IMG/VR virus record: IMGVR_UViG_3300045988_173816
Location: 220,027-284,026 of that record
DNA length: 64,000 bases
Strand: one strand, 5' to 3'
Source: a virus
The notes beneath the pieces were generated by a model. It saw only the letters and a list, made by a program, of their open reading frames with translations, ran no database searches and was not told the origin of the DNA. The position numbers were made by a program, and so were the translations under genes. Shown one piece after another: positions 1-64,000 of this stretch (position 1 is the stretch's first letter; every line of letters starts with the position of its first letter).

Positions 1-1311
1 GTTTTCCACCAATTTAAACGTGACGTTACAGATGCTGAGATTGTAATTGTAATTGGTATGTCTGGGTCTGGTAAGTCGTTTGAAATGAAGATGTTAGCTA
101 CACAGTTTGCAGCTAATGATAATATGATTATGACTATCAATGACTATGAAGGTGGAGAATACAAAGGTCTAGGTCAATTGCTTGCTGAAGATTTCCAAGT
201 TGTTTCGTTGGATTTGGGAATGGGTTCAGGTCGTTACCTCGACCCAGTTCCGATTGTTCCAACTGGTGATGAAGAAATGGACAATACCTTGTTTACTCGT
301 TCTCGTAAGAATATTATTGACTTGTTCAGAGCAGTAGCTGGTTTGGAAACCTTGAAGAAGTACGCTTGGATTCCTTTAATTATTGAGCGTGGGGTTGACT
401 TGTTTTATAGTAACTATGGGGTATCGATTGACCCTCAAACGTGGCACGCGCTAGAGGGTTGCTCTATTTATACAGTATATGAGTATTTGAAAAAATATCG
501 TCCGAATTTAGATGATGTTTTAAACTCTATTACTGAGGAAGATAAAAATATTTTAAGTGAAGAAGATATTAAAGAGTTGTACAAAGACGCTTTAAAAGAC
601 TTTCAAAAAGACTATCTTTATTTCTTGGAAACCTTTGGTTCTTATTTTGAAAAAAGTAAGAAGTTGAACAACTACTTTAAATATCCGATTTACTTAAAGG
701 ATATTATTGATGCAAAATTAGTTATTTGTGACTATAACATGCGTGGGGTTCCAGAAAGTCAGTTGTCTGAATTGGATGCTATTCTTATTCCTATGAATGC
801 AGCAACTGTAGCTTATTACCGTACTGTGTATCCTTTCTCACGTGGTCTTTACAATGTGAAGATTTGGGAGGAGTTGCAACGTTTCAGCTCTCTTCCAAAT
901 GCAGTAGAGATTTTGAAAACTCCAATCACAGGGGGTCGTAAAGCAGGTGATATTAACATTGTTGCTTCCAATGATCCAGTTAAATTGGTTGAAAAAGATG
1001 AGTTCTCCTTGTTTGCTAACTACACATTAGCAATGGTTGGTAAGATTAAGTCCCCAGTTTATCAAGAGATTGTATGCAAGGCTCTCGGTATCACTGATTT
1101 AGCTGATGAATTAGCCGAGATTGGTTCTGTTATCGAAGAGGATGAGGGTTTGACTGCGGGTTATGATGAGGTTCATGCAGAACCTTATAAGAAAGCCTTT
1201 GTTTTGAAATTGAACTCTGGGGAATCTTCAGTTGTAAAAGCAGACTTACCTCGTGCTTTAAGTGATACTCCACTCTTCAAGACCGGTGTGATTGCGCAAG
1301 ACAAACAGTAA
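1..1311 (+). CDS. VirB4/TrsE-like (HerA-FtsK superfamily) P-loop ATPase, 5'-truncated by the window edge
   Basis: Frame 1 is open from nt 1 (VFHQFKRDVTDAEIVIVIG precedes the listed Met). Walker A GMSGSGKS, then NDYEGGEY (cf. DPxGEY of conjugative VirB4-type ATPases), a Walker-B-like VKIWEE and a GGRKAG motif. Confidence 0.55.
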   Translation, partial: VFHQFKRDVTDAEIVIVIGMSGSGKSFEMKMLATQFAANDNMIMTINDYEGGEYKGLGQLLAEDFQVVSLDLGMGSGRYLDPVPIVPTGDEEMDNTLFTRSRKNIIDLFRAVAGLETLKKYAWIPLIIERGVDLFYSNYGVSIDPQTWHALEGCSIYTVYEYLKKYRPNLDDVLNSITEEDKNILSEEDIKELYKDALKDFQKDYLYFLETFGSYFEKSKKLNNYFKYPIYLKDIIDAKLVICDYNMRGVPESQLSELDAILIPMNAATVAYYRTVYPFSRGLYNVKIWEELQRFSSLPNAVEILKTPITGGRKAGDINIVASNDPVKLVEKDEFSLFANYTLAMVGKIKSPVYQEIVCKALGITDLADELAEIGSVIEEDEGLTAGYDEVHAEPYKKAFVLKLNSGESSVVKADLPRALSDTPLFKTGVIAQDKQ

Positions 1312-1332
1312 GATAGTTTAGGTGATTTGAAC

Positions 1333-1506
1333 ATGATATTATTAAGTTTAGTGCTTTTTCTAGGAGGTATCCTTTGGGGAGTTTCAAACTCTATAACCTC
1401 TGAGAAGTTAAAAGAAGAGGTTAAGAAGAGTCGTTTCCTCGTAATTGGGGTAGGTGTGGTCTATGTTTTAGTAGTCCTTGCAACAACGTTAGAAGGGAAA
1501 CACTAA
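1333..1506 (+). CDS. small membrane protein (57 aa, two hydrophobic segments)
   Basis: Hand-translated ATG 1333 to TAA 1504-1506: MILLSLVLFLGGILWGVSNSITSEKLKEEVKKSRFLVIGVGVVYVLVVLATTLEGKH. The stop overlaps the ATG of the next gene (TAATG). Below the ORF-track size cutoff. Confidence 0.5.
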   Translation: MILLSLVLFLGGILWGVSNSITSEKLKEEVKKSRFLVIGVGVVYVLVVLATTLEGKH

Positions 1507-3995
1507 TGGATTGGCGAAATTCAAATGATGATTTAACGAGACAATCAGATGCTCGAAGGGAGCGAGAAAATCAACCTTTTGAAAATGGGATTAGAGATAG
1601 AGACTCAGGGGGTTTCGGCGGTATGCGCCAAGGTCCAGGTGGCGACCCTTTAGCTCGTATGAGAGGTGCGCAACCTGACCCTTTTGCAAATCGAGTAGGT
1701 GGAGGTTTACCTCCTAGACAACCGTTTGGACAACCTCAAGGGTATCCACAACAAAACCAACCCCCTCAACATTTGAGTCAACATGAAGATTGGATGGATA
1801 AAACTTTTAAAGTAGTTACAGGTTTGTGGAAACATTTAACTTCTTATGTGTGGCCTGTCTTGTCTGAGTCTGATGATATGTTCAGAAGTGACTACAAACT
1901 AAGAAAAGGGTTAACTGCTGCTCTCTTCTATTATGGTGCAGTAGGTGGGTTCTCTTTCTTGTTTGGTTTGTTTACGAAGTTTGCAACTGCACCAGTTATT
2001 TTCGTATCTCTTGTAGGCGGTGGAGCGAGTGGTGGTATTTTCTTGTATAAGAACTCTCAGAATAAGGAGTGGGGGTTGATTGATGACTCTCCAAAGGAAG
2101 AGACTTACCCTCAAGCACCTCAACCGTCAGAGTTTGGCGCTCCAAGGGGTTTTATGGATGATGGTTTTGGTTCTCCAAATTCTAATCCTATGGGTGATTT
2201 TGGACAACCTCCAAGAAGAGAAATTCCAAATGAATTTAGAAACTTTGGTTCAAGTGGTGGTTGGGATGATGAAGAGGAAGAACCTCCATTTCCCAAAAGA
2301 CAAGGTTTTGAACCTATGATGAAACCAAATCCTACTCCATTTGATGATTTGGAAGAAGATGATTTAGAAACTCCTTCCAAGGGTATCCCCTTAAAAGGCG
2401 CAAGCGCTAAGGATATTTGGGGGAGCATAGACGATTCTGAAGATGATTTAGAAGATGAAACAGAAGAGACAGAGGGTAATTCAAATAGTTCCAGAGAAGA
2501 ATTAGAGAATCCTAAAGTTGAAGAAGTTTCCGAAAGTGCATTTAGTGCAGATTTAGCAGGTGGTATCGTTGAACCAGAGTTAGTTTCCCGTAGACTTCTT
2601 GTAGATAAGTATTTATCTCTTTTAGACGGTTCTAGCTTAAAACCTGATTGGTCTCGTGAGGTTCCAGAAGATAGTGTAGAGTTTAAACAATTAGAAACAT
2701 TCCTTCGAGACGCCCAAACAGGTGGAGTTAAAGGTTTGTCTGAGATGGATTGGGTTAATGTGAAGTCTATTACAGAGCGAGTGTCTGTATTTGAGATTAT
2801 TACTGATCGTCCAGAGAAATTAAAAGGTAAAGAAACTCTCTTTGCAAAAGAGATTACAGAGTTGCTGAAAGACCAAATGAAGGGTTATTTTGGAGATAAT
2901 GTAACCACTACTGCAGTTGGTAAAGGTAGTCGTATTGCAATTACTATCTTTAAGCAAACAGGTACTTCCTTTATGTTGAGAGATTTGATTGAGTCGAGTA
3001 AAGATTTCTTCTTAGACACGAAAAATGAACTTCCAGTTGTATTCGGAGCTGATGAATATGGAGAACCGATTCTTCTTGATTTAGCAAAACACACAGGTAC
3101 AATTATTGCAGGGATGGCTCGAACAGGGAAGTCTGTTCTTGCTACGGGTATCGTTAATCAAATGATGGCTTTAAACTCTCCTCGTAAGGTTCAAGTCGTA
3201 GCTGGTGATATGAAAAACAAAGACTCTGACTGGTATCAGATTACCTTACCTCACTTGCGTAAGTTTGCAACAGGTACAAAAGCGATTATGGACTTGCTTG
3301 ATTGGGTTGTATCTGAGGAAGCCCCAAGAAGAAAGAGATTGATTGGTGACCAGTTGAAAATTCAAAACTACAATGCGAATTGTTCGGATGAGTCTGAGCA
3401 GTTGCCTTACTTATTTGTAGTGTTGGATGAAATTATTTCTTTTGCTGAGAAGTTAGACAAAGATGAAAAAGCAGTGTATAAAGCTTATTTGAGTGAAATT
3501 TTAACTGCTTTCCCTAATGTCGGTATCTTCTTAATTTTCGTACCTCATCAACTACACAATGATTACTTCCCTAAAACGGCTTCTCGTATGGTGGGGAATA
3601 GATTTGCAGTTAAGGCAGGTCAACCAATTCAGAAAACGATTTGGGAAGACTCTTATCGTCAAATTGACTTCCCAACCACCAACACAGGTGACTTTGCTTA
3701 CACTCTCGCTGGGTCTGATGAGCCTAAGTTCGGTCACGCTCCTTTGATTATGAGCATGAGTGGTGGTAAAGAGCGTTTAGATAAGTTGTATGAAACTCAG
3801 CGTAAAATGTGGACGAAGTTATACCCAGAAGAAGCAGCTACATCTGCTTATGTCACTCGTTTGAAAAATGAGCAGGCAAGTGCAACGTTAGGTAAGCTCG
3901 GTATTCCAGTTTCGGACACGGATTTCGCAGAAGAAGACTCTTTACGTTTTCCTAAGTCTAATACAAGTAATGTAGACTTTATTCGAGACATTTAA
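1506..3995 (+). CDS. FtsK/SpoIIIE-family DNA translocase-like ATPase with disordered P/Q/G-rich N-terminus, TM segments and acidic linker
   Basis: Walker A IIAGMARTGKSV (nt ~3111-3134), then DMKNK...LPHL, LDWVVSEE..RRK, QNYN and Walker B LPYLFVVLDEI, colinear with the FtsK motor domain. Hydrophobic stretch AALFYYGAVGGFSFLFGLF...VIFVSLVGGG. No recognisable gamma winged-helix at the C-terminus. Confidence 0.8.
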   Translation: MDWRNSNDDLTRQSDARRERENQPFENGIRDRDSGGFGGMRQGPGGDPLARMRGAQPDPFANRVGGGLPPRQPFGQPQGYPQQNQPPQHLSQHEDWMDKTFKVVTGLWKHLTSYVWPVLSESDDMFRSDYKLRKGLTAALFYYGAVGGFSFLFGLFTKFATAPVIFVSLVGGGASGGIFLYKNSQNKEWGLIDDSPKEETYPQAPQPSEFGAPRGFMDDGFGSPNSNPMGDFGQPPRREIPNEFRNFGSSGGWDDEEEEPPFPKRQGFEPMMKPNPTPFDDLEEDDLETPSKGIPLKGASAKDIWGSIDDSEDDLEDETEETEGNSNSSREELENPKVEEVSESAFSADLAGGIVEPELVSRRLLVDKYLSLLDGSSLKPDWSREVPEDSVEFKQLETFLRDAQTGGVKGLSEMDWVNVKSITERVSVFEIITDRPEKLKGKETLFAKEITELLKDQMKGYFGDNVTTTAVGKGSRIAITIFKQTGTSFMLRDLIESSKDFFLDTKNELPVVFGADEYGEPILLDLAKHTGTIIAGMARTGKSVLATGIVNQMMALNSPRKVQVVAGDMKNKDSDWYQITLPHLRKFATGTKAIMDLLDWVVSEEAPRRKRLIGDQLKIQNYNANCSDESEQLPYLFVVLDEIISFAEKLDKDEKAVYKAYLSEILTAFPNVGIFLIFVPHQLHNDYFPKTASRMVGNRFAVKAGQPIQKTIWEDSYRQIDFPTTNTGDFAYTLAGSDEPKFGHAPLIMSMSGGKERLDKLYETQRKMWTKLYPEEAATSAYVTRLKNEQASATLGKLGIPVSDTDFAEEDSLRFPKSNTSNVDFIRDI

Positions 3996-5435: not shown

Positions 5436-7163
5436 GTGGCAGTAACAGAAGTTTCTTTGTACAAAGGTGGTTTTATTGATAAGTCTGCACCAATACAACG
5501 TTATAGGTTATTGGATAGTATTATTCAGAAAGCAAATGAGGATAAAGACCAAGTTGGTTTTCCAGAGTTAGCAGATAGTTTACTAGACTTAACTCCAGAG
5601 CAAATAGACCAAGTAATTGCTACAAAAAGTTCGTTAAAAGAGGGAGTAGCAAAAGGTTCACTTCGGTGGTATCAGACTTATGGAGTTCATTTTATTTTAG
5701 CAGCTCGTTCTGCTTTAATTATGGATAGTGTGGGATTAGGAAAAACTGCTACAGTAGCTTCGGTTATTAACCATGTAGGAGCTTTAAAACAGAGAACTAA
5801 AGGTAAACCTTTGCGTTATTTGTTTTTAACTGAGGTTGGTTTGGTCGCACAAGCTCGTAGAGAGCTAATTCGTTTTACAGGAGATTATGTAGCTACAACT
5901 ACGGGGGATTCAAACCAAGTAAGTGCTTTTATCAAAGAGCAAAAAGAGTTAGGGTATCCTAGTGGTGTAGTTGCTTCGTATTCAGCAGTGTCTTCAAGTC
6001 ATGAGTTTATGTTGTGGCTTGCGCACACTGTGAAGTTGCATGGTAAATTTGATTATTTCTTTATTGATGAGGGTTCGGTGTTAGGTTCTACTAAGTCTGA
6101 TATTTATAAAGCTTGTAAAACTGTACGGACAAAGTTTGCAAACCATGTGGTTGTAATGAACGCTACTCCTTTTGAGAAGTCTATTGAGGGAATGTACAAT
6201 CAGTTGAACTTTTTATTTCCAGATGTGATGCCTTTAAAGACTAAGTTTGAAGAGTTGTTTGTGAAGAAGTCATTTCAAACTCATCAAATTTTAGGCTATA
6301 AAGACCCAGAGTTGTTTAAGGTTTGTACTCGATTTATGGCTTTTGGAACGGCTCGTCAAGAGCTAGGGGTATCCGTTAAAAACTCGACTTGTGAATTGGT
6401 CTTATACAAGCCTTCACATTACCAAAACCAACTGTTTAGTAAGACTAGATACAAGCGTTATGTTTGGGACGAACCGACTTGGTTCGATCCAGATTTGGAG
6501 GTAACTCCAGAGGTTTTACCTAAGTTACAAGTGATAGAGGACTTATTTCAGTATAGGATAGGTCAAGATAAAGCTTTGATTTACGTTCACTCGGTAGAAG
6601 CTCAGAACATTTTAGTTCGGTTCTTAGAGGGGTTGGGTATAAAAGCTCTTACTATTAACGGTGAAGATAATACCCCTAAGAAGAAGGAAGCGAAGTTAAA
6701 AGAGTTCCATGAAGGTGATTATAGAGTGATTGTAACTAACTTGAAGAAGGGTTTGAATTTAGGTTTTATCAACCATTTAGTTTTTTATTCTTTCACAGGA
6801 AACTCAGGAATTACGAATCAGATTGAAGGTCGTATTGTTCGTAGTCAAGATATTCATGATAAGCATATTTACTTAGTTTTAGCTAGAAGAGAAGAGTATA
6901 AAGTTTTAGAAGATGCTTGTGTGAGTACAAAAGATAGATTAGCTCATACAAAACATGAGGTCAGTTTGTTGAACAACTTCTTTTTAAATCCAGACTTAGT
7001 AAACATAGTGGTAGAAGTTACCAAGCAAGAGATTTCGGAAGGTGCAAATTCTTCCATTGTAGCGGTATCTTATTCGAACCAAGATATGAATGGGGTTATA
7101 TCCTACCCTAAGTGGTCGGATGATTTAGAACAAACGAAAGCAGGTTTAACTTTACATGGCTAA
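5436..7163 (+). CDS. SNF2-family helicase/translocase
   Basis: LRWYQ...DSVGLGKTAT (motif I), FFIDEGS (motif II) and a C-terminal helicase domain (LIYVHS..ALTINGED....RVIVTNLKKGLNLG). Confidence 0.8.
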   Translation: MAVTEVSLYKGGFIDKSAPIQRYRLLDSIIQKANEDKDQVGFPELADSLLDLTPEQIDQVIATKSSLKEGVAKGSLRWYQTYGVHFILAARSALIMDSVGLGKTATVASVINHVGALKQRTKGKPLRYLFLTEVGLVAQARRELIRFTGDYVATTTGDSNQVSAFIKEQKELGYPSGVVASYSAVSSSHEFMLWLAHTVKLHGKFDYFFIDEGSVLGSTKSDIYKACKTVRTKFANHVVVMNATPFEKSIEGMYNQLNFLFPDVMPLKTKFEELFVKKSFQTHQILGYKDPELFKVCTRFMAFGTARQELGVSVKNSTCELVLYKPSHYQNQLFSKTRYKRYVWDEPTWFDPDLEVTPEVLPKLQVIEDLFQYRIGQDKALIYVHSVEAQNILVRFLEGLGIKALTINGEDNTPKKKEAKLKEFHEGDYRVIVTNLKKGLNLGFINHLVFYSFTGNSGITNQIEGRIVRSQDIHDKHIYLVLARREEYKVLEDACVSTKDRLAHTKHEVSLLNNFFLNPDLVNIVVEVTKQEISEGANSSIVAVSYSNQDMNGVISYPKWSDDLEQTKAGLTLHG

Positions 7164-7169
7164 GAAGAG

Positions 7170-8830
7170 CGCGGTTAGGATTTTTAGTAGGTACTCTATT
7201 AGGCTAGTGGAGGGTGTTTTGGGTTAGATTTTAATTGGTTTGAGGTTGTTTATGTTATACTAGATTTAGAAAGAGGTGAGAGAAATAGGCAAAAATGTTA
7301 AAAAGAATTTTACTGTTGTTAAATACATTGTCAAAAATACTGATATGAATGCATATTTCATGAGGTTGGCAATTTTAAGTACTAATTTAACAAATACACT
7401 TCTTTATTATCATAGACAGTGGTATTTTTATACTCAAAATGTATATTATACAGAACATCCAAATGAAAGTTTTAGACCTTACCGGTATAATGAAGAAGTT
7501 ATTGATGAATTGAAACGTTATATGTATGAGTATAATCAGAATAAGATTTTGTATGGGAAGAGACCTACTGATTTTATCACTTTTGGGTTAGATGCTTACT
7601 TCTTACATTTTTATTTTAAGAAAATTTGTCAATCCGATTATACAAATGATGACTTACCAGCTCAAGTGGCTCAACAAGTTACTCAAAAGGTTTCACAATC
7701 CTTTAAATCTTTTAAACAAGCTCGAAAAGGCTTTTTTAAAAATCCAGATAAGTATGATACTTGTCCGCAATTACCTAGATATAATAAAGGTAGTAAAATT
7801 TCTCCTTTATATTTTACAAATCAAGCTACTAAAATTAAAAACGGTGTTTTAAAATTCCCTAAGACCAAATTGACACTTCCCTTCACATATAAACCAAAAG
7901 GTAAATATACAAGGATGGAAGTCATTCATAGCTATGGGCAATTTGAATTACGTTTGGTTTTCGAAGAGACCGAAAACCTTAAATTTAGAGAAACAGATGT
8001 AGTGGCAGCTATTGATCCGGGCATAAGTAATCTTATAGCTATTACGACTAATAAAGGTCAGTCCTTATTAGTCAAGGATAAGACTGTAAAATACATCAAT
8101 CAATATGCAAATAAAGAAATTGCTAGAATAAAGTCAGCTCAAATGACAACTGGTGGTTGTGATAAAGTTCAAATGTCGAAACAATTATCAAAAATCTATC
8201 AAAAAAGACAAAGACGAATTGAACATTTGTTTTATGTGCTTGCTAAACATGTGTTAGCCTTTTGCTTAGAAAATAATGTTTCAAAATTAGCTCTTGGTAA
8301 AAATAAAGGGTGGAAACACACTTATAACAAAGGTAAAACTAATAATCAAAACTTTATTCAAATTCCTTATACTAGTCTCTATCGAAAAATACAAGATTTG
8401 TTAACTAAGAACGGAATTGAAGTAATAGAACAAGAAGAATCGTATACATCAAAAGCTTCTGCGATAGATTTAGATGAACTTCCAGTATTTGGAGAAGGAG
8501 ACCTTAATGTTAGTTTTACAGGTATACGGTTTGGAACGCATAGTCGATTGTATAAAACCGGAAAGGGAAATACCATAAACGCTGATATGAATGGTGCTTT
8601 AAATATTTTAAGGAAAGCTTTCCCAGATGTTGAAATTGAACTAAACGATTTACAATATTTAAAGAATCCGAAAGTTTTAAGAAACATGCAAGCCTAATCA
8701 GTAATAACTGTATAGGTGATGGGCGCATTTATGGGTATGCGCGGAGCATCTTTGTAGAGGTTCCGAAAGTACATTTATATAAACTGAATGTACTAATTCA
8801 TTGGTCGAACAACTGGAGAAAGGCTCACGG
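7170..8830 (+). mobile_element. tnpB-only IS200/IS605-type element (boundaries approximate)
   Basis: Contains a single TnpB ORF with no tnpA. About 110 nt of stop-rich non-coding DNA upstream and about 130 nt of non-coding DNA downstream before native-looking coding sequence resumes (~8830-8841). No GGTATC copy inside, unlike the flanks. Confidence 0.55.
7276..8697 (+). CDS. tnpB: TnpB-like RNA-guided nuclease (RuvC-like, zinc-finger-less subtype)
   Basis: RuvC I AAIDPGISNLIAITT, RuvC II EQEESYTSKAS, RuvC III INADMNGALNILRKA. No CxxC pairs between RuvC II and III (SAIDLDELPVFGEG...). GTG start; alternative ATG at 7343. Confidence 0.8.
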   Translation: MREIGKNVKKNFTVVKYIVKNTDMNAYFMRLAILSTNLTNTLLYYHRQWYFYTQNVYYTEHPNESFRPYRYNEEVIDELKRYMYEYNQNKILYGKRPTDFITFGLDAYFLHFYFKKICQSDYTNDDLPAQVAQQVTQKVSQSFKSFKQARKGFFKNPDKYDTCPQLPRYNKGSKISPLYFTNQATKIKNGVLKFPKTKLTLPFTYKPKGKYTRMEVIHSYGQFELRLVFEETENLKFRETDVVAAIDPGISNLIAITTNKGQSLLVKDKTVKYINQYANKEIARIKSAQMTTGGCDKVQMSKQLSKIYQKRQRRIEHLFYVLAKHVLAFCLENNVSKLALGKNKGWKHTYNKGKTNNQNFIQIPYTSLYRKIQDLLTKNGIEVIEQEESYTSKASAIDLDELPVFGEGDLNVSFTGIRFGTHSRLYKTGKGNTINADMNGALNILRKAFPDVEIELNDLQYLKNPKVLRNMQA

Positions 8831-8968
8831 GTATCCACTCTTGCGAAAGAAAACTAAAAAGCTTGCGGTTTATGTGAAACCTGAGTTACAGTCCGTTGAA
8901 CGCACTAAACGACTTCGTTCAGCAAAAGCAGAAGTAGATGAGATTTTAGAACGTCGAGGTTACTTCAA

Positions 8969-9178
8969 ATGAGGTTAGGTGACTTTTTAAGCCTTTCAGA
9001 TTTGCCTTTAGATAGTGAGTCTAAGGTTGAATTTTATGAGATGAAGAACTTTAAAGAAGACATTTTAGCTAATAAATTCTCAAACTTGTATATGATGGGT
9101 GACGGGGTTGGAGATAAAACTCACGCACCTTACGGTTTGTTGATTAACAGTTCTAACTTGATTGTTTTCTTTGAATAA
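8969..9178 (+). CDS. hypothetical protein
   Basis: ORF-track ORF, co-oriented. Its ATG overlaps the stop of a short upstream reading frame (ATGA). Confidence 0.4.
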   Translation: MRLGDFLSLSDLPLDSESKVEFYEMKNFKEDILANKFSNLYMMGDGVGDKTHAPYGLLINSSNLIVFFE

Positions 9179-9216
9179 ACAGTAGGAAAAGAAGAAGTAA
9201 ATAAGGAGATTGTGCT

Positions 9217-10035
9217 TTGAAGTCGTATTTATATCTATCTGATATTCACGCAAATTTTGAGGTATTAAAACAGTTGGAAACTTTACCAGAGTTCACAGAT
9301 GAGAATTGTGAAATTCGCTTTGGTGGTGACTATATTGACGGTTTCGAACTAAAACCAAATGCTACCTTAGATACCCTTCATTTTGTGAAGGGTTTGTGCG
9401 ATAATGGAAAAGCAAGAGCGATTGTAGGAAATCATGATATTTTCTTGTTAGATAGCGCTTTTCGTCCTTTTACGACTAATTGGTGGTGTTATAATGGTCG
9501 AGAGGAAACTCTTGCTAATTTGGGTATTCCTTTTGCTTCTGAGAGCGATTTAAGAGAGCAGTTGTTGTTTTACTTATATGATGAACTAGTTTGGTTGCGT
9601 TCCTTGCCTTATTATATAGAAGACGGTTCTAATATTCTAGTTCACGCAGGTTTTGAGTTAGATTTACCTTTGGACAAACAAGATACTGAGGGTATGGTTT
9701 GGACTCGTGAGTTTTACATTGACTCTTTAAACCATTTAACTGATGTAGATTTGCACCCAGACTTTAAAGGGAAAACAATTATTTCAGGACATACACCAAC
9801 TTGCACGATGAGTGAATACGAACACCCAGTTAATCCTTGTCAAATCTTGAAAGATAGTTTAGAATTGGATGGTAAACCTTTGATTACACGTTACTTTATT
9901 GATGGGGGTTCTAAGTCCGGTTCTGAGTTTTCTCGTATCAACTTATTAAAATTAGATGAAAATGGAAATGAAATTTGGCAAGGATATCTTAATGAGACAG
10001 GTTTTCATTTATACTCAGAGCCAACGAACGGGTAA
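9217..10035 (+). CDS. calcineurin-like metallophosphatase (PrpE/ApaH-type)
   Basis: YLSDIHAN, GGDYIDG, VGNHD, LVHAG and SGHTP motifs in canonical order. Confidence 0.75.
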   Translation: MKSYLYLSDIHANFEVLKQLETLPEFTDENCEIRFGGDYIDGFELKPNATLDTLHFVKGLCDNGKARAIVGNHDIFLLDSAFRPFTTNWWCYNGREETLANLGIPFASESDLREQLLFYLYDELVWLRSLPYYIEDGSNILVHAGFELDLPLDKQDTEGMVWTREFYIDSLNHLTDVDLHPDFKGKTIISGHTPTCTMSEYEHPVNPCQILKDSLELDGKPLITRYFIDGGSKSGSEFSRINLLKLDENGNEIWQGYLNETGFHLYSEPTNG

Positions 10036-10037
10036 CT

Positions 10038-10316
10038 TTGTTAGTAGAAAGTAGTGAAAAGAACATGAATACACACTCAAATTTATTAGGTTTTGACCTC
10101 GAAGGTAATTGGACTGGGATGGACTCTCAAACCTTGAGAGACTTTGCAGACTCTTTTATTGATGTAGTTAATTTTGTGAGTGAAGAAGCTATTGTCTCAG
10201 CTATTTCTGTAATGACTCTTTCCCTCATTTGGATAGGATATCCTCAAAACTGGGTGTATTCTGAGTTCAAAGTAGTTTTTGAAGGTTTACTTAGACGTTA
10301 CAACAGAGATTTATAA
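10038..10316 (+). CDS. hypothetical protein
   Basis: ORF-track ORF, tightly packed and co-oriented. Confidence 0.45.
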   Translation: MLVESSEKNMNTHSNLLGFDLEGNWTGMDSQTLRDFADSFIDVVNFVSEEAIVSAISVMTLSLIWIGYPQNWVYSEFKVVFEGLLRRYNRDL

Positions 10317-10339
10317 AAACAGAAAGAGTAGTTTAGACA

Positions 10340-10741
10340 ATGAAAACACCAATGATTTTAACCGACTTAGAAAAGTTGGTAACAGAGTATACTAGTAAAG
10401 ACCATAGTTCACAAGGTTTCAATTTCAAATCAAGTGAATTTGATTATGAGTGGGAAGTAAGCAAATTGAATTGGTACTTTTACTTTAACAGAGAAGATGC
10501 AGGTCTTTTTGCAGCCGATTTTCAAGTTGTTCGAGATTATGCTTACTTCCGTATCGAGTTCCCACTTTATCTTTATCGTGGCAGTGAATTTTGCTCAGAA
10601 GATTCAGAGGTGTTTAAAGATGTAGACTTGGAGTTTTCTTTCCGCAACGGTTGGCTCAAAATAACTACGATTGTAACTGAGGAAACAGACTTACACCATG
10701 TTTTTGATGTTCTGTTTTCTATTCTAAAAGACTATAATTAA
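10340..10741 (+). CDS. hypothetical protein
   Basis: ORF-track ORF, co-oriented, ATG start. Confidence 0.5.
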   Translation: MKTPMILTDLEKLVTEYTSKDHSSQGFNFKSSEFDYEWEVSKLNWYFYFNREDAGLFAADFQVVRDYAYFRIEFPLYLYRGSEFCSEDSEVFKDVDLEFSFRNGWLKITTIVTEETDLHHVFDVLFSILKDYN

Positions 10742-10756
10742 ACTGGAGATTATGAA

Positions 10757-52550: not shown

Positions 52551-53779
52551 AGAAGAGATTGTTGTCTGGTGCTTTACTAGGTGCTACGATACTAACATTA
52601 AGTGGTTCGGTATCCTCAGTCTTTGCAGGTTATACTAATGTTGAGGATATTTCAGAGGATGGTTGGAAAACTATTCGAGGAGCAGCAAAGAAAGCAAAAG
52701 AGTTAGGTATTTCTCCAGAAGCTTTCTCTGGGATGATGGGGAACGCCAATGAGGAGTCTTCCTTCGATGCCACTTTGGAAGAAGCAGGGAATGTAGCTAG
52801 TAGAGGTCTTGGTTTATTCCAGTGGACAGATACTAGTGGGAGTCCTCGAAGAACCCAATATGAAAATTGGGTGAAAGAGAAGGGGTATGACATTAAAGAC
52901 CCAGCTACTGCAGGTGCAGCTTCTATTGAGTACATGAATGAGGAGATGCAAGGAAATTCCGATTTTGGTGCCGGTTTTTGGTCTAGTTATATTCATGGAA
53001 TTTGGGGTAGAAGTGACTTAAATCAAACTTCTAAAAGTTATGATGAATTTAAAAAGGCAAAAGATGTAAAGGGTGCAACTTATGACTTTGTAGCTGCTTT
53101 TGAGAGACCCGCAGCCGATACTTTAGATAAACGAGCTAAAATGGCAGAAGCTATTTATGAGAAAATCAAAGATGAATATGGTACTTCAAACGGAGACGAC
53201 AGTTCAAGCTCTAAGAAGAAAGAGTCGGTATCAGACAATTTGAAACGTTGGTCTGAGGAAGATATTCCGAACATGCCTAAAGACCGTGACTATGGTAAAG
53301 AGGAACGTGGTTTCAAAGATCGTATTGATAAGATTGAGAAGTTAAAAGGTGATGAAGCCACAAGTATTGCTAAGTGGAAAGAAGAACGTGATGTTTCTAT
53401 TCAACGAAGAACGATTAAAGGTACTCGTTTAGTTGTAATGGTGCTTTCTATGATTGCTTTGGTGTATCCTTCATTCTTGCTATTTGCTTATGTGTTTGAC
53501 TCATGGTTTGTTTATGTGGACAGTCCAGCTATGCGTTTAGTAACTTTTAACCGTAGAGCTATTGAGCAGAACAGAAATGGCTCTGGTGGTTTATGGTTTG
53601 CAGACAAGAAAGAAAATGCTCGTTTGAAGACAAAACGTTTAGGTTTAGGAGATACTTTGATTTGGGCTGCAATTTTCAGTATTGTAGGTGTAGCTGGTGT
53701 CTCTGGGTTAATGTATGAAACTGCGGGAAGTATTTGGCAGTTTATTGCAGATTCTTGGGGATATTTTCTCAATGGTTAG
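52535..53779 (+). CDS. secreted lysozyme-like (phage-tail-lysozyme fold) cell-wall hydrolase with C-terminal TM segments
   Basis: Signal peptide. GMMGNANEESSFDATLEE...GLGLFQWTDTSG..R resembles the Phage_lysozyme2/lytic-transglycosylase-like motif (recollection). Two C-terminal hydrophobic segments. Confidence 0.55.
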   Translation: MASSLKKRLLSGALLGATILTLSGSVSSVFAGYTNVEDISEDGWKTIRGAAKKAKELGISPEAFSGMMGNANEESSFDATLEEAGNVASRGLGLFQWTDTSGSPRRTQYENWVKEKGYDIKDPATAGAASIEYMNEEMQGNSDFGAGFWSSYIHGIWGRSDLNQTSKSYDEFKKAKDVKGATYDFVAAFERPAADTLDKRAKMAEAIYEKIKDEYGTSNGDDSSSSKKKESVSDNLKRWSEEDIPNMPKDRDYGKEERGFKDRIDKIEKLKGDEATSIAKWKEERDVSIQRRTIKGTRLVVMVLSMIALVYPSFLLFAYVFDSWFVYVDSPAMRLVTFNRRAIEQNRNGSGGLWFADKKENARLKTKRLGLGDTLIWAAIFSIVGVAGVSGLMYETAGSIWQFIADSWGYFLNG

Positions 53780-53800
53780 AAGAGTTAGGAGTAGATTAGA

Positions 53801-55477
53801 TTGGTTAGAAGTGGATCAGTTAAAACGTATTTAAAAGAGGGTGACATCATTGACAAGTCTTGGGAAGTGATTAAGAAGATTGGTCAAGGTGGGACTGCAA
53901 CTGTTTATTTGGTTCGAGATATTGAATTGAATCGGTATCTTGCATTGAAAGAGGTTCCAGTAAGAAATACTGCGAAGGGTAAGTTACAAGCTAAAGCAGT
54001 TATTGCTGAGATTAGCTTGTTAAAAACCTTGAGTCACCCTTCCATTCCTCGTATTATCAAAATGACTCATGATGCTCATTCAATTTTGATTATTATGGAC
54101 TATATTGATGGTTATTCTTTGCGAGATATTATTCGTAAGAAGAATTATATTCCAGAGTCTATGATTATTCAGTGGGGTGTAGCTTTGTGTAAAACCTTGC
54201 GTTATTTACATAATCATGAGCCTAAGATTATTTATCGAGATTTAAAACCACATAATGTCATGATTACAAATGAAAATCATTTGTACCTTATGGACTTCGG
54301 TATCGCAAAAGAGGTTACGCCTAATTTTGATTATAGTAAAGAACCAAAGTTGGGTACATTAGGTTTTGCAGCACCTGAGATGAGTGCTGATGCAGCATGG
54401 TTTGATGAGCGTTCAGATATTTTTGCTTTAGGTAGAACTTTATTTTTCTTAGCGACTAGAAATAGTCCTTCTGTTACACACATGCCAGATGGTACGCCTA
54501 TTCCGATTTTACCGATTCGACAATATGATTCATCTCGTTCAGTTGGTTTAGAAAAGATTATTCTGAAATGTACGGAGAAAAACCCGGAAGACCGGTATCA
54601 AACGATAGATGAAGTTCTTTATGATTTAGAGCATATTGATGAAATGTCTGAAGGGTTCAGAGCTAAGATTAAGCGCAGAGCGAATATGATTTATTTGTTA
54701 TTTATAACTTTAGTTTTAGGTTTTGTGTTAGTTGGGGGTGGCTTATTATACAGTCGCATTTCTGTTGCAGATACTTATAAGCAAGCTTTAGCCGCAGGGA
54801 AAACCTCTCAGTCTATTGACTCATTGTTGAAGGCTAGTAGTATTGCGCCAAGTGAGGTTGAACCTTACTTAGAGATGGTGAAGATTTATCGAGCTAGTGG
54901 TCATTTTACGAGTGAAGATGAGTTTCAATTGCTGGGTGCTTTGCAAACAAATATTCCAAGTTTGAAGGGTAAAGAAGGTGCAGGAGACTTGCTTTATCAA
55001 GTAGGTCAGTTGTATTGGTTCTATTACCCACAGAACGGTCAAACAAAGTCAGTTTCTTGGTTTGAGCAAGCTAAAGAGTTTGGGGTATCTAAAAAGAATG
55101 CACACTTACTTTCAATTTATTTGGAACTTGGTACATTCAAGAAAGGTATTTTAAGTTCGATTACAGACAACTCTGATAGTGGTATGTATAAGACTTATTG
55201 GGACGCTTTGAGCGAATTAGCAGTTGAAATGGGTGGTGACCCTCAGTTAGAGATTACTTATTTGGAGAGTGTCTTTGATGTAATTGACTCTTACTCAGGT
55301 GGTTTGAAGTCTGATGGTTTGACTTTAGAAGAGTTAACAGAAGTGTTTAATAAAGCAGTTGATTCGTTAAACTCTTATGAAGGTAAAACTGATGAGCAGA
55401 AGAAAACGAAGACTGAGTTACAATCGCGTGTAGATACAATTCGCAATAAGTTAAATACAACTTATGGTGTAAGATAG
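53801..55477 (+). CDS. Hanks-type Ser/Thr protein kinase with TM segment and non-PASTA extracellular domain
   Basis: GQGGTATVY, LALKEV, IIYRDLKPHNVMI, MDFGIAK, GTLGFAAPE. TM IYLLFITLVLGFVLVGGGLLY. No PASTA repeats seen in the C-terminal ~240 aa. Confidence 0.85.
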   Translation: MVRSGSVKTYLKEGDIIDKSWEVIKKIGQGGTATVYLVRDIELNRYLALKEVPVRNTAKGKLQAKAVIAEISLLKTLSHPSIPRIIKMTHDAHSILIIMDYIDGYSLRDIIRKKNYIPESMIIQWGVALCKTLRYLHNHEPKIIYRDLKPHNVMITNENHLYLMDFGIAKEVTPNFDYSKEPKLGTLGFAAPEMSADAAWFDERSDIFALGRTLFFLATRNSPSVTHMPDGTPIPILPIRQYDSSRSVGLEKIILKCTEKNPEDRYQTIDEVLYDLEHIDEMSEGFRAKIKRRANMIYLLFITLVLGFVLVGGGLLYSRISVADTYKQALAAGKTSQSIDSLLKASSIAPSEVEPYLEMVKIYRASGHFTSEDEFQLLGALQTNIPSLKGKEGAGDLLYQVGQLYWFYYPQNGQTKSVSWFEQAKEFGVSKKNAHLLSIYLELGTFKKGILSSITDNSDSGMYKTYWDALSELAVEMGGDPQLEITYLESVFDVIDSYSGGLKSDGLTLEELTEVFNKAVDSLNSYEGKTDEQKKTKTELQSRVDTIRNKLNTTYGVR

Positions 55478-60414: not shown

Positions 60415-60457
60415 AAATCAAGGTTTTCTACTTGAAGTTATATAAAATCAAGGTTTT
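60415..60457 (+). repeat. 13-nt direct repeat AAATCAAGGTTTT x2, 30 bp apart, upstream of the HU promoter
   Basis: Copies at 60415-60427 and 60445-60457. Confidence 0.45.
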
Positions 60458-60480
60458 TGAAACTTTTTTGCACAAAACTG

Positions 60481-60509
60481 TTGACAGAATAGGGTTTGTG
60501 TGATATAAT
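60481..60509 (+). promoter_or_regulatory. SigA-type promoter (TTGACA-17-TATAAT, TG-extended)
   Basis: -35 at 60481-60486 and -10 at 60504-60509, preceded by TGA. Confidence 0.7.
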
Positions 60510-60560
60510 GTTTATTGTAAGTTAGCAAAACAGCTAACGAATAAAGAAAGGAGCCAACAA

Positions 60561-60836
60561 ATGGCTAATAAAAAAGATTTGATCGCTAAAGTAGCAGAAG
60601 CTACAGAATTGACTAAGAAAGATTCAGCAGCAGCAGTAGACGCTGTATTCGCAGCAGTAGCTGATTTCCTTGCAGCTGGTGAAAAAGTTCAATTGATTGG
60701 TTTTGGTAACTTTGAAGTGCGTGAACGTGCAGAACGTCAAGGTCGCAACCCACAAACAGGTGCACCTCTTACAATCGCTGCTTCAAAAGTACCAGCGTTT
60801 AAAGCAGGTAAAGTTCTTAAAGACGCTGTTAAATAA
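60561..60836 (+). CDS. hup: HU-family DNA-binding protein
   Basis: [30 protein letters not shown]...[21 protein letters not shown]...KVPAFKAGK. Near-identical over long stretches to streptococcal HU as I remember it. AAAGGAG RBS. Confidence 0.9.
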
Positions 60837-61595: not shown

Positions 61596-61679
61596 GCGTG
61601 GATGGCGAAATTGGCAGACGCACACGGTTTAAGCTCGTGCGAACTTTGGTTCATGGGGGTTCAAGTCCCCCTCTGCGCA
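61596..61679 (+). tRNA. tRNA-Leu (anticodon TAA), class II
   Basis: Acceptor GCGTGGA/TCTGCGC, anticodon arm CACGG-TTTAAGC-TCGTG, variable hairpin GAAC-TTTG-GTTC, T-arm GGGGG-TTCAAGT-CCCCC. No encoded CCA. Confidence 0.85.
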
Positions 61680-61785
61680 TACCTTAACTGAAAAAGAAGA
61701 AGTAAACGCATAAAGCAATCCCAAGCGGACTATGTGTGCGGAAATTGATTTCCGTTTGAAATTCGGTTAGGGTTTTCAGTATAAA

Positions 61786-61861
61786 GGTTCCATAGCTCAA
61801 TTGGATAGAGCACACGCCTTCTAAGCGTGGGGTTTTGTAGGTTCGAACCCTACTGGAATCA
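61786..61861 (+). tRNA. tRNA-Arg (anticodon TCT)
   Basis: Acceptor GGTTCCA/TGGAATC, D-arm GCTC-AATTGGATA-GAGC, anticodon arm CACGC-CTTCTAA-GCGTG, T-arm GTAGG-TTCGAAC-CCTAC. Atypical 7-nt variable loop. Confidence 0.8.
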
Positions 61862-62160
61862 TTAGCTTTAGGTGTAAACCTACATCATTATCTTTCTGAC
61901 GACACATAATGGAAGTGTAGTTTCTTGAACAGTGACAAAGCGTTTAAGGAATCAAAAATGATGAATTTGTAACTATTTTCCCGCTCGAATCAATGAACTA
62001 GAGCGACAATAACGATGATGAAGTGTAGCTGACTTTTGAGTTAGTGTGAAGGGGTGGTAGCAAAACGGATGATTGTGTGGAGGAGCTTTTCAGTGTTAGG
62101 TTCGAAACTAATAAGAAAAGTGATGGACACGTTTTGGATAGTTACATAATGCTATATTTA

Positions 62161-62233
62161 GAACTGATAACTCAGTTGGTAGAGTAGCGGACTTTTAATC
62201 CGTTGGTCGCAGGTTCGAGCCCTGCTCGGTTCA
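62161..62233 (+). tRNA. tRNA-Lys (anticodon TTT)
   Basis: Acceptor GAACTGA/TCGGTTC, D-arm ACTC/GAGT, anticodon arm GCGGA-CTTTTAA-TCCGT, T-arm GCAGG-TTCGAGC-CCTGC. Confidence 0.85.
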
Positions 62234-62767
62234 TGCCGGGAAGATTGTTTTGAAGTAATTCATGGCAATTTAGGTTTAACGACTGTAAAAGGTCGCTAAA
62301 TCATTATAGCACAAGCGTAGTGTGCAACCACTATGTGAGTGCTTGAGATTCTTACTTAGTTAAGTAAGAACGCCTAAGTAGAAGGCTAATCTTCTACTAA
62401 CGCTCCTCAGCGATACGAGGTGACGACAACGGTTCGATTAGCGGGCTTAAAGCTAGTCAGATAAGGTTGGTGAGGTTTACTGCGCTCCAAGTCCAAGCAA
62501 TATGCGTGTGGAAAGGTATAGAGTTCTCCTTTTTCAGTAAATCAAGATTAAAACTCAGTTGCAAAACGGTGGAGACAGTTCCACTTATGGGTATCAAAAC
62601 TGTCGTAGAAGCCGTTTTTAAAATCCGATTGCTTTAGATGTCTAGGGTATAAAGCAATAAAACGCACGACAATTCCTATCTTACTAGACAGGGTAGGAAG
62701 TCAAAAACTTGTGGGTTCAACGGTTCTCCCACATAAGATACCAGAGCTGTTAAGGGTATCATATTTA

Positions 62768-62841
62768 GGTGCGATAGCTCAGTTTGGTAGAGCGTTGGAT
62801 TGAAGCTCCATGCGTCGGCGGTTCGATTCCGTCTTGCACCA
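62768..62841 (+). tRNA. tRNA-Phe (anticodon GAA)
   Basis: Acceptor GGTGCGA/TTGCACC, D-arm GCTC/GAGC, anticodon loop TTGAAGC, T-arm GGCGG-TTCGATT-CCGTC. Confidence 0.85.
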
Positions 62842-62867
62842 TAACCGATTAGGGGGTTTTTCCTTTA

Positions 62868-62940
62868 GACTCGGTAGCTCAGTTGGGAGAGCATCTGTCT
62901 TACAAGCAGAAAGTCATTGGTTCGAACCCAGTCCGAGTCA
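62868..62940 (+). tRNA. tRNA-Val (anticodon TAC)
   Basis: Acceptor GACTCGG/CCGAGTC, anticodon arm TCTGT-CTTACAA-GCAGA, T-arm ATTGG-TTCGAAC-CCAGT. Confidence 0.85.
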
Positions 62941-63250
62941 TAACTAACTATTCTCTTAGCGCGCAGATTTTAGTTAGTGGAACCTGTTCTTGTTTTCGAA
63001 ATGTTTAATTTTAGTTTTAGGAACAGACATCCATAAAAGACAAAAAGAACAAGAAACAAACGAAACGCGTTCGTTTACAAACTTTGGTTTATTTTGAACT
63101 TGTTTTAATCTGATACCTCTTTTGTCAATGGGTATCGAATGAAAAAAAAATCAAGTTTCGCTTCTATTTAAACCAAACTCTTCCTTATGTTACTTTCGTT
63201 TAATTAGTAGTTGTCAGCTTCTTACCGAACGGGTACATTAGGGAGTTCAA

Positions 63251-63323
63251 TCCACCATAGCTCAGTTGGTAGAGCACTCGACTGTTAATCGAGTTGTCAC
63301 TGGTTCGAGACCAGTTGGTGGAG
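63251..63323 (+). tRNA. tRNA-Asn (anticodon GTT)
   Basis: Acceptor TCCACCA/TGGTGGA, anticodon arm CTCGA-CTGTTAA-TCGAG, T-arm ACTGG-TTCGAGA-CCAGT. Confidence 0.85.
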
Positions 63324-63783
63324 TTCCATTGTGAGATGGAAGATTAAACTATTTTAATTAGAGAGTTATTGTACACTTAGTCTAACTCTCATCAAGAACC
63401 ACGATGGGATTTGTATAGAATATTTAGTACCCTCTAATTAAAATTTTAGAATCGTAGGGGCTACGAGGATAGCTTGGTTTATTTGCATAACCTATGGGGA
63501 CTAATCAGTTAGTTTTCTAAGTCAGTGTATTACCCAAGAAACTTTTACTTGTAATAGACAACATAGGTAGGAGTAGTTCACATTCTGATTACCACCGATA
63601 GCATGGTGCTTATGTTTGGGTCATGGCTTACGTAGACGAGCCGGTAAATCAGCGGAGTTCTTCTTTTGAAGAGTTGTTCGAATCCTTGCGGTGGTATTAG
63701 TTTTTGTGCCACAACGGCGTGCAACGCTTGAGAGAGGGTTGCAGAAGTTCTTAGAGCAAGTTTTTGCTCTTCGTATTTTTTAT

Positions 63784-63858
63784 CGGAATTTAGCGCAGTT
63801 TGGTTAGCGCACGTGTTTTGGGAACACGGGGTCGCAAGTTCGAATCTTGTCTTTCCGA
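63784..63858 (+). tRNA. tRNA-Pro (anticodon TGG), weak acceptor stem
   Basis: D-arm GCGC/GCGC, anticodon arm CGTGT-TTTGGGA-ACACG, T-arm GCAAG-TTCGAAT-CTTGT. Acceptor CGGAATT/CTTTCCG has two mismatches at its base, but the flanking AT/AT extend pairing outward. Confidence 0.6.
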
Positions 63859-63863
63859 TATAA

Positions 63864-63937
63864 GTACCTTTAGCTTAGATGGTTAAAGCTCTCGGCTCAT
63901 AACCGAGTGACCGTAGGTTCGAGTCCTGCAAGGTACA
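63864..63937 (+). tRNA. tRNA with CAT anticodon (elongator Met or Ile2)
   Basis: Acceptor GTACCTT/AAGGTAC, D-arm GCTT/AAGC, anticodon arm CTCGG-CTCATAA-CCGAG, T-arm GTAGG-TTCGAGT-CCTGC. Lacks initiator features. Confidence 0.8.
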
Positions 63938-63947
63938 TTAAAGTTAT

Positions 63948-64000
63948 GGAAGATTACCCAAGTCTGGCTATAAGGGGACGGTCTTGAAAACCGTTAGGTC
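63948..64000 (+). tRNA. tRNA-Ser (anticodon TGA), 3'-truncated by the window edge
   Basis: GGAAGATTACCCAAGTCTGGCTATAAGGGGACGGTCTTGAAAACCG matches the 5' two-thirds of class II tRNA-Ser(UGA). Confidence 0.7.

Follow-up and report, generated by a model that had tools for sequence, protein, structure and literature searches.

The DNA analysed here is a 64-kb stretch of IMG/VR record IMGVR_UViG_3300045988_173816, called the window in what follows and used for all coordinates unless stated otherwise; with its flanks, about 114 kb were sampled, or about 45% of an element of roughly 245 kb. The window carries a dense, evenly spaced array of the hexamer GGTATC lying almost entirely on one strand, and its genes suggest that the element, although filed as viral, is probably a relative of the conjugative plasmid pXO16.

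Gene Content of the Window and Identity of the Element

Coding is almost entirely one-sided: 46 of the 47 open reading frames (ORFs) of at least 150 amino acids (aa) in the window lie on the + strand, the flanks are organized likewise, and, at a GC content of 36%, the GC skew stays between +0.13 and +0.27 throughout the window. About 20 kb to the left and about 20 kb to the right of the window revealed neither a strand switch nor a block of − strand genes, and the motif keeps the same orientation there. The products include an FtsK/SpoIIIE-like ATPase, an SNF2 helicase, a DnaB-like helicase, a CHC2 zinc ribbon, a RuvC-like protein, a protein joining ParB-N to an HNH domain (ParB-HNH), and a family-A polymerase (PolA), together with FHA, PP2C, HD, and Ser/Thr-kinase proteins, a lysozyme, a large Ig-like protein, a signal peptidase, HU, and eight tRNAs. 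The HU gene (60561–60836, + strand; 60440–60836 with its canonical TTGACA-17-TATAAT promoter) has apparently been captured from the host, as its product is 89–91% identical in aa sequence to the HU proteins of S. mitis, S. pneumoniae, and S. fermentans; the identity to the S. mitis and S. pneumoniae proteins makes an oral mitis-group Streptococcus the most likely host.

We compared this Streptococcus DNA with pXO16 (pBTHD789-1, NC_018516.1), a 350-kb conjugative plasmid of Bacillus thuringiensis sv. israelensis. Searching with the pXO16 ORFs by tblastn returned about 30 colinear homologues (E 1e-6 to 1e-136, 22–50% identity), whose order agrees with the pXO16 annotation and which include a VirB4-like ATPase, the FtsK-like ATPase, the DnaB-like helicase, the primase-type zinc ribbon, ParB-HNH, and PolA. 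In pXO16, all coding sequences (CDS) are co-oriented, very few of them have database homologues, and the transfer locus comprises two ATPases and a hydrolase (PMC9673590, PMC6199540). No relaxase or origin of transfer (oriT) has been identified in this plasmid, although its transfer is completed in 3.5–4 min and oriT-less plasmids as well as chromosomal DNA are mobilised (PMC9673590); single-stranded DNA (ssDNA) has been reported as the form transferred (PMC6199540). One has to keep in mind that conjugation is known for pXO16, which is self-transmissible (PMC9673590), whereas for the Streptococcus element it is suggested by gene likeness.

Pfam, PHROGs, and NCBIfam searches of the window and about 20 kb of its upstream flank revealed no capsid, portal, terminase, or tail gene. 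Likewise, GenBank phages gave no near match to the window, their PolA matches being at most 33% identical, and an exact-protein look-up of PolA returned no match. Judged by its genes, the element is probably a pXO16-type giant conjugative plasmid and not a phage, and its “viral contig” label in IMG/VR is doubtful. The T5-like phage setting implied by a preliminary description of this DNA is probably wrong too, given a backbone colinear with that of pXO16. The same may hold for its relatives: we collected, via PolA, 27 related IMG/VR contigs of 34–278 kb, many of them 160–278 kb and several above 200 kb, all filed as viral (an alignment-based PolA scan added only one contig), and in a 269-kb relative, the region equivalent to the window wraps across the contig ends. 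These contigs are probably plasmids as well, and their classification may be wrong because their backbone is that of a conjugative plasmid.

A Dense Array of GGTATC on the Coding Strand

Machine counting over the 64 kb found 110 copies of GGTATC on the + strand and five on the − strand, the latter at 9370, 36970, 43992, 62737, and 63112 (span 9370–63117). A count made by eye in the preliminary description had arrived at about the same figures, with the same five reverse positions and correct + strand coordinates, except that 4232, 12634, and 61189 should read 4222, 12624, and 61188. The + strand array, of extended form S-GGTATC-[C/T] (S being G or C), runs from 420 to 63136, with copies starting at 420, 1087, 1366, 1741, 2382, 2562, 3147, 3232, 3522, 4222, 4742, 5127, 5668, 5953, 6368, 7064, 8830, 11195, 11429, 12624, 13511, 14119, 14511, 14924, 15224, 15655, 16057, 16402, 17467, and 17814; at 19231, 19346, 19758, 20036, 20385, 21500, 21832, 22525, 24002, 24838, 25524, 26139, 26624, 26930, 27772, 28399, 28610, 28949, 30178, 30434, 30993, 31441, 32146, 33057, 33478, 33938, 34150, 34780, and 35292; at 37198, 37319, 37661, 38075, 38876, 39309, 39760, 40075, 40480, 40802, 41644, 42155, 42742, 43411, 44223, 45006, 45453, 45933, 46283, 46863, 47531, 48376, 49027, 49351, and 49996; and at 50381, 50879, 51223, 51527, 51788, 52222, 52609, 53227, 53934, 54299, 54594, 55084, 55511, 56003, 56334, 57008, 57235, 57777, 58777, 59608, 59878, 60286, 61188, 62590, 62755, and 63131.

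Neither base composition nor coding content accounts for these numbers. Dinucleotide shuffles give 15.2 ± 3.9 copies for both strands summed (maximum 24), and none of 100 shuffles reached the observed 115, in agreement with the 7–8-fold enrichment and the strand bias above 20:1 estimated earlier; Markov models of orders 1–3 predict 8–22 copies on the + strand. A synonymous-codon shuffle, which preserves both the proteins and the codon usage, yields 22.6 ± 3.7 copies on the + strand (maximum 34) and 10.6 ± 2.8 on the − strand, so that the five reverse copies represent at most a mild, marginal deficit. Among all hexamers of the window, GGTATC has the highest z-score (z = 26) and the strongest strand asymmetry. 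The + strand copies fall in codon phases 0/1/2 in the numbers 41/32/33, the remaining four being non-coding, as the preliminary description had pointed out in arguing against a codon artefact; these phases, together with 110 copies against 22.6 ± 3.7 in the synonymous-codon shuffle, rule out a codon or dipeptide origin.

The flanks are weakly biased, in the direction noted by eye (G or C on the 5′ side, C or T on the 3′ side): position −1 is G in 59 copies, C in 32, T in 14, and A in 5, position +6 is C in 46, and information beyond the hexamer is restricted to S at −1 and C/T at +6/+7. Copies of a longer repeat or mobile element can be ruled out, as no information extends past these positions and no such repeat family appeared in a repeat search of the window. 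The copies are spread evenly along genes, with no bias for a position within the gene, and the tRNA spacers carry the motif at the same density as elsewhere, which argues against a translational or mRNA-specific role. No hairpin is associated with the motif: complementary words are not enriched nearby, and the folding energy equals that of controls, which rules out a structured-site component except at two copies in the tRNA array. There, the reverse copies at 62737 and 63112 each lie 18–19 nt upstream of a + strand copy (GATACC-N12/13-GGTATC), forming inverted repeats at 62737–62760 and 63112–63136, one of which ends 8 nt before tRNA-Phe; they may be processing or termination hairpins.

Spacing, Turnover, and Selection

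The array is more even than chance. The mean distance between + strand copies is 575 bp, with a coefficient of variation (CV) of 0.64 against 0.99 for random placement and a minimum of 85 bp; only five gaps are shorter than 200 bp where 31.7 are expected, and none of 3000 random placements was as regular. One of the two large gaps, between 7064 and 8830, is explained by an insertion free of the motif, an IS605-family TnpB element at 7155–8799 (+ strand; ORF 7276–8697; Pfam OrfB_IS605 and Cas12f1-like TNB domain). The relative L110 is without this segment and no relatives of the TnpB protein were found in IMG/VR or GTDB; by these sequence comparisons, the 1.65-kb insertion is recent and private to this genome. 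The other gap, 8830–11195, comprises 2.4 kb with a single reverse copy (9370) and contains a metallophosphoesterase gene and small ORFs; this DNA is common to the relatives at 83% identity, and the relatives do have motif copies there.

We then asked how the copies fare between relatives. In each informative relative, the retention of motif hexamers exceeds that of control hexamers, by a factor of about two in most cases (67% vs. 33%, 41% vs. 21%, and 37% vs. 17% between the window and relatives). The PolA gene carries six to nine motifs in every relative but the most distant one (L109, two copies), at positions that shift from one relative to another. As individual sites turn over while six to nine copies per PolA gene persist, selection acts on density and spacing. 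GGTATC, or S-GGTATC, is a positively selected, strand-specific, and evenly spaced DNA word.

The Array in the Plasmid Family and in the Hosts

Every locus of the Streptococcus clade shows the array, for example at 44:1, 51:1, and 53:4 copies per about 24 kb; in a lineage of this clade whose PolA is only 45% identical, the word is GGGTATC (42:0). In the complete sequence of pXO16, a circle of 349.6 kb, the word is GGGGTA, extended W-GGGGTA-K (W, A or T; K, G or T), with 658 copies on the coding strand and five on the other. It occurs 40–54 times per 25-kb bin round the whole circle, at a mean spacing of 531 bp (CV 0.71, largest gap 2071 bp). The preliminary description had raised the possibility that orientation flips at an origin or terminus; in this complete relative, polarity never switches, so the reversal typical of chromosomal polar sequences is absent there, just as the Streptococcus element keeps one orientation over the DNA sampled. 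The five reverse copies of pXO16 compare with 6.5 expected from composition, so the reverse word is not depleted, and, with the marginal deficit in the window, we rejected selection against it. Of the 658 copies, 160 are intergenic, and about 80 lie 4–8 nt upstream of start codons. In pBtic235, co-resident with pXO16, GGGGTA occurs at 0.14/kb, compared to 1.88/kb in pXO16.

More family members were found by a metagenome scan with a VirB4-like alignment. One of them (L227) has GGGGTA at 42:1, while five others (L212, L214, L215, L218, and L222), recovered from metagenomes that include gut and fermentation ones, show GGGTAT 2- to 3-fold over the codon shuffle (z 5–10). Each variant can be read as a sub-window of GGGGTATC, and GGTA is the core common to all. 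The word is not universal, as a 215-kb plasmid of B. velezensis (NZ_CP076292.1) has no enriched oriented hexamer and a related 136-kb plasmid of B. subtilis has no such word. The former has the same replication and transfer modules, is fully co-oriented, and reaches a GC skew of 0.34; together with pBtic235, it rules out the array as a by-product of co-orientation and GC skew. Its CHC2 gene was missed by tblastn, but the annotation shows both a CHC2 and a ParB-domain protein; as both occur in a plasmid without the motif, the phyletic pattern failed to discriminate between these candidate readers. As a separate observation, this plasmid holds about three times the expected number of CTGCAG (PstI) sites, at even spacing (L155/L156; 16–17 copies per ~35–40 kb, CV 0.56–0.83).

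In Streptococcus chromosomes, chosen as host on the basis of the HU identity, GGTATC occurs 132 times on the G-rich strand and 135 times on the other (29 loci, 548 kb; 0.24/kb each), which rules out a Chi or KOPS (FtsK-orienting polar sequence) of the host, both of which figured among the precedents listed initially. A DNA uptake sequence (USS/DUS) was rejected too: such sequences are abundant in the host and about equal in both orientations, whereas GGTATC has a 22:1 bias here and background frequency in Streptococcus. Since the word changes from lineage to lineage and the hosts lack it, its reader should be encoded by the element. The array is a trait of a family of giant co-oriented plasmids related to pXO16, and the window belongs to a Streptococcus member of this family. 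We found no description of it in the searchable literature, in line with the lack of precedent stated at the outset, although a mention in the original sequence paper of pXO16 (Makart et al. 2015, Plasmid 80:8-15) is possible.

Candidate Reader Genes

A stand-alone protein with a CHC2 primase-type zinc ribbon is encoded at 18979–19629 (+ strand; Pfam Zn_ribbon_DnaG, 1e-7), its true start probably being 19003, and its homologues have 208 aa. It matches the DnaG zinc-binding domains 2au3 and 1d0q in the PDB, and the best fold match of its AlphaFold model (pLDDT 79) is that of Geobacillus stearothermophilus DnaG, 1d0q, with a Foldseek probability of 1.00 and an E of 1.4e-2, weaker than the 0.001 cut-off; the T4 primosome protein gp61 comes second with a probability of 0.25. 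This gene and that of the DnaB-like helicase are neighbours in the B. velezensis plasmid and pXO16 as well. The helicase (15082–16674, + strand; Pfam DnaB_C) is 27% identical to the DnaB-like protein of pXO16, and we read its N-terminus as a DnaB N-terminal domain, with neither zinc finger nor TOPRIM.

Two other genes could encode the reader. A membrane-anchored, coupling-protein-like ATPase of the FtsK/SpoIIIE type (1506–3995, + strand; Pfam FtsK_SpoIIIE, 1e-12) is 28% identical to the pXO16 FtsK/SpoIIIE protein; it has N-terminal hydrophobic segments and, as read from its sequence, a short, acidic C-terminal tail with no obvious winged helix, and Pfam gave no hit to the FtsK gamma domain. 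It follows the 3′ part of the gene for the VirB4-like conjugation ATPase (1–1311, ORF 58–1311, + strand), whose full version lies at 9062–11254 in relative L110. The latter ATPase matches NCBIfam conju_CD1110 at 1.2e-7, below the curated cut-off, is 32% identical to the pXO16 protein over 93% of its length (E 1e-100), and has no match in GenBank phages; a cell-wall CHAP hydrolase is encoded farther upstream. The ParB-HNH protein (23060–24700, + strand; Pfam HNH 1e-8, ParB_N weak) is 33% identical to a pXO16 HNH endonuclease over 92% of its length and comes directly after a ligase-like ORF (21665–23053) with weak similarity to the NAD-ligase of pXO16.

Other Features of the Window

PolA is encoded at 41589–45512 (+ strand; Pfam DNA_pol_A, 1e-47), and neither its N-terminus nor a conserved 612-aa protein has a sequence match in the PDB. 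An IS607-like pair occupies 31961–33719, a MerR-HTH and serine recombinase gene (31961–32584) overlapping a TnpB/Cas12f-like gene (32538–33719); it carries three motif copies, unlike the IS605-type element, which suggests long residence. A tandem duplication (29077–30080, period 499 bp, 72–79% identity) has given the paralogous ORFs 29081–29596 and 29586–30080, and many paralogues are described in the literature for pXO16 too. A eukaryote-like signalling module with FHA, PP2C phosphatase, HD, and Ser/Thr kinase genes spans 47571–55477, its order conserved with pXO16. The tRNA array (61596–63937, + strand), unusual for a plasmid, holds eight genes (Leu, Arg, Lys, Phe, Val, Asn, Pro, and Met); the syntenic CDS-free 4.4 kb of pXO16 (40087–44525 of its record) contains no tRNA. 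Finally, palindromic restriction sites are avoided over the whole window, with GATC found 29 times against 153 expected, GGCC twice against 12, and ATTAAT, CATATG, CTCGAG, GAGCTC, GGTACC, and TCTAGA all absent, which fits exposure to DpnII-type and other restriction systems.

A Possible Role in Priming

A bare, asymmetric word confined to one strand implies a reader that is directional or acts on ssDNA. The reading that we favour, tentatively and as a possibility rather than a probability, is that GGTATC is a site recognised in DnaG/T7-type priming, lying on the strand exposed as ssDNA. The word would be read there by machinery that the element encodes for priming, namely the DnaB-like helicase and the stand-alone DnaG-type zinc-ribbon protein. 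The motif strand, coding and G-rich, would be the lagging-strand template were replication to proceed in the direction of transcription. It may also be the strand delivered as ssDNA by conjugation; should recipients receive these plasmids in single-stranded form, synthesis of the complementary strand would use the same sites. By chance, a strict primase working on AT-rich DNA would meet its hexamer only every 3–5 kb; selection would have made the word commoner, at about one per 550 bp, and its gaps more even, offering an Okazaki-type primer start every 0.5–2 kb.

The words themselves are compatible with such a role. Primase sites in T7, in T4, and for DnaG share a grammar in which a run of G is followed by a T templating the initiating ATP and by one 3′ “cryptic” base that is not copied; T7 5′-GGGTC-3′ gives pppACCC, and Firmicute DnaG uses 5′-YTA-3′. 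Inspection of GGTA-T-C and GGGG-T-A shows a T at position 5 of each, with a single base on its 3′ side, and the core GGTA fits 5′-NTA-3′; GGTATC would template pppAUACC, or pppACC from the GGTA core, and GGGGTA would template pppACCCC. The zinc ribbon selects the template sequence in DnaG and T7 gp4 and can act in trans. The scale of about 550 bp, held in two lineages with different words, matches that of Okazaki-fragment priming. The reverse word would escape depletion in pXO16 because wrong-strand copies are neutral to a primase, whereas breaks or a misdirected pump would predict otherwise.

Several points weigh against priming. No TOPRIM catalytic domain was found in the window ORFs scanned or in the flanks read; pXO16 has a separate 261-aa toprim protein, of which no homologue was found in the Streptococcus DNA examined, and the host DnaG could supply the catalytic domain. 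T7 was tried as a precedent for a primase footprint and provides none, its GGGTC, TGGTC, and GTGTC sites being neither enriched nor strand-biased. The B. velezensis relative has the helicase/CHC2/RuvC-like/ParB module and a stronger GC skew, and no array. The approximately 80 pXO16 copies placed before start codons double as Shine–Dalgarno sequences for roughly one gene in five, which we read as opportunistic placement. The zinc ribbon is thus a putative reader of the motif, and the lagging-strand assignment is deduced from gene co-orientation and GC skew.

Alternative Readers

The precedents gathered in the preliminary description already comprised primase sites as well as the main rivals, namely guidance of the FtsK/TraB type and nick sites. 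A guidance signal in the manner of KOPS, of the SpoIIIE recognition sequences (SRS), or of the TraB recognition sequences (TRS), on which the FtsK/SpoIIIE-like ATPase of the tip-like transfer module would load to pump DNA one way into the recipient, seems unlikely to us, even if much of the setting suits it: the ATPase adjoins the VirB4-like ATPase and the cell-wall hydrolase in an arrangement conserved with pXO16, the words are G-rich and more than 95% polar, as are KOPS and SRS, and they keep a single orientation round the pXO16 circle. The gamma or winged-helix domain through which such pumps would be guided was not detected, the C-terminal tail being short and acidic; KOPS and SRS are 8-mers about 20 times sparser than this motif; pXO16 shows no depletion of wrong-way copies; and FtsK-like proteins persist in the B. 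velezensis and B. subtilis relatives, which have no motif. The rapid transfer of pXO16 with no known relaxase or oriT, and its mobilisation of oriT-less and chromosomal DNA (PMC9673590), would suit a pump, whereas the report of ssDNA transfer (PMC6199540) does not, as FtsK-type recognition concerns double-stranded DNA. The same lack of a relaxase and oriT, the mobilisation of oriT-less DNA, the marking of a single strand, and the conservation of ParB-HNH with pXO16, directly behind a ligase-like ORF in the window, could speak for strand-specific nicks, or a distributed oriT: ParB-HNH, the candidate nuclease, would nick the word on the strand that bears it, opening many starting points for rolling-circle synthesis or single-strand transfer, all on that strand, and a ligase would reseal the nicks, the nearest precedent being the nicked genomes of T5-type phages. 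We regard this as improbable, since the nicks are hypothetical, the need for one site every 550 bp at even spacing is left unexplained, avoidance of double-strand breaks would predict a depletion of the reverse word that pXO16 does not show, and a ParB-domain homologue is present in the motif-less B. velezensis plasmid; moreover, HNH enzymes are not, to our knowledge, covalent pilot relaxases. A broader proposal overlaps with both, and we give it only slender credence: the array would be the missing cis-acting transfer signal of pXO16-type plasmids, replacing a single oriT cut by a relaxase, and the strand-specific enzyme could be ParB-HNH, the FtsK-like pump, or, in concert with these, the zinc-ribbon protein. 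If so, single-strand export and re-priming could start anywhere, always in the same direction, which would explain why no relaxase or oriT has been found, how 350 kb move in minutes, and why oriT-less plasmids and chromosomal segments bearing the word by chance are co-transferred.

Throughout the window, some 50 kb of its flanks, and the complete pXO16, the motif strand carries all the genes, so the word is perfectly oriented with transcription, and the caveat raised at the start, that an RNA-level role is inseparable from a DNA-level one in a co-oriented window, still stands. GGUAUC or GGGGUA could be recognised in the long transcripts, which all run in one direction, or RNA polymerase could sense the word on the non-template strand, as a signal for processive antitermination, pausing, or the marking or processing of the element's RNA, and some 80 pXO16 copies do serve as ribosome-binding sites. 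We doubt this strongly, as the motif shows a uniform distribution along genes, occupies every phase, and is equally dense in tRNA spacers, the Streptococcus word does not resemble a Shine–Dalgarno sequence, no structure accompanies it, and co-oriented relatives of the same architecture are without it; we know of no RNA system using a bare hexamer every 550 nt. Protection of the Chi type, in which the word would stop a helicase-nuclease (host RexAB/AddAB or one of the element's own) from degrading linear or single-stranded intermediates, appears very improbable: the word is polar, over-represented, oriented with the G-rich strand as chromosomal Chi is, and spread evenly, as suits a signal to be met soon after entry, but it is neither enriched nor skewed in Streptococcus chromosomes (132 vs. 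135) or enriched in the co-resident B. thuringiensis replicon, no AddAB/RecBCD-like genes were seen in the window, and its change between lineages favours a co-evolving reader encoded by the element.

Significance and Comparison with Known Systems

Whatever its reader, the array is a genome-wide signal, about 95–99% strand-pure, regular at about one copy per 550 bp, and selected while single sites turn over. It occurs in poorly understood plasmids of 160–350 kb that have all genes on one strand and conjugate without a known relaxase or oriT, and the drift of the word (GGGGTA, GGGTAT, GGTATC) at constant density points to a co-evolving reader carried by the element. An array of this type could mark the plasmid family as a one-strand k-mer; it bears on how giant replicons are copied or transferred and gives an experimental handle on the question. 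If priming were the explanation, this would be, as far as known, the first replicon visibly shaped throughout by the specificity of a primase.

The closest comparison is pXO16 itself, which shares with the Streptococcus element the ~30 colinear homologues, the co-oriented CDS, the uniformly positive GC skew, and a dense one-strand hexamer array of the same density; the two differ in host genus, in size (350 kb vs. about 160–280 kb), in the word (W-GGGGTA-K vs. S-GGTATC), in the many copies doubling as Shine–Dalgarno sequences in pXO16 and not in the Streptococcus element, and in the tRNA array, present only in the latter. Known primase sites (5′-(G/T)(G/T)GTC-3′ for T7 gp4, GTT/GCT for T4, CTG for DnaG, and YTA for Firmicute DnaG) resemble the word in being short, asymmetric ssDNA-template sequences with the same grammar, and here genes for a DnaB-like helicase and a DnaG-type zinc ribbon lie close by and the spacing is of Okazaki scale. 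However, those sites are 3–5 nt long with no genome-wide footprint (tested in T7), whereas here a 6–7-mer is about 5–8-fold enriched, 95–99% on one strand, and regular, and the zinc ribbon stands alone without TOPRIM, unlike in known primases.

KOPS/SRS and the TRS of the clt locus are likewise G-rich polar words, and here too an FtsK/SpoIIIE-family ATPase is encoded by the element within a DNA-transfer module; but KOPS and SRS are chromosomal and far sparser and flip at ori and dif, whereas the present word keeps one orientation, is absent from the host, and comes with no detected gamma-type domain. The TRS of Streptomyces TraB are 8-bp repeats clustered in the single clt locus, whereas the copies here are spread evenly, with no cluster. 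T5-like and some Pseudomonas phages (tf, the phiKMV group) have sequence-defined sites on one strand, to be compared with the HNH nuclease and ligase-like genes found here, but in their genomes the nicks number from a few to a few tens, at longer consensus sequences (PMC3517423), whereas nicking at GGTATC would involve about 400–650 sites per replicon. Chi (RecBCD/AddAB) is also an over-represented, polar word of 5–8 nt on the G-rich strand, although it is a property of host genomes, whereas GGTATC is unbiased in Streptococcus DNA and the word varies among related elements. Signals of this kind, polar and over-represented with a directional machine as their reader, are already known; what is new here is the word, its density, its regularity, its single orientation round the replicon, and its setting.

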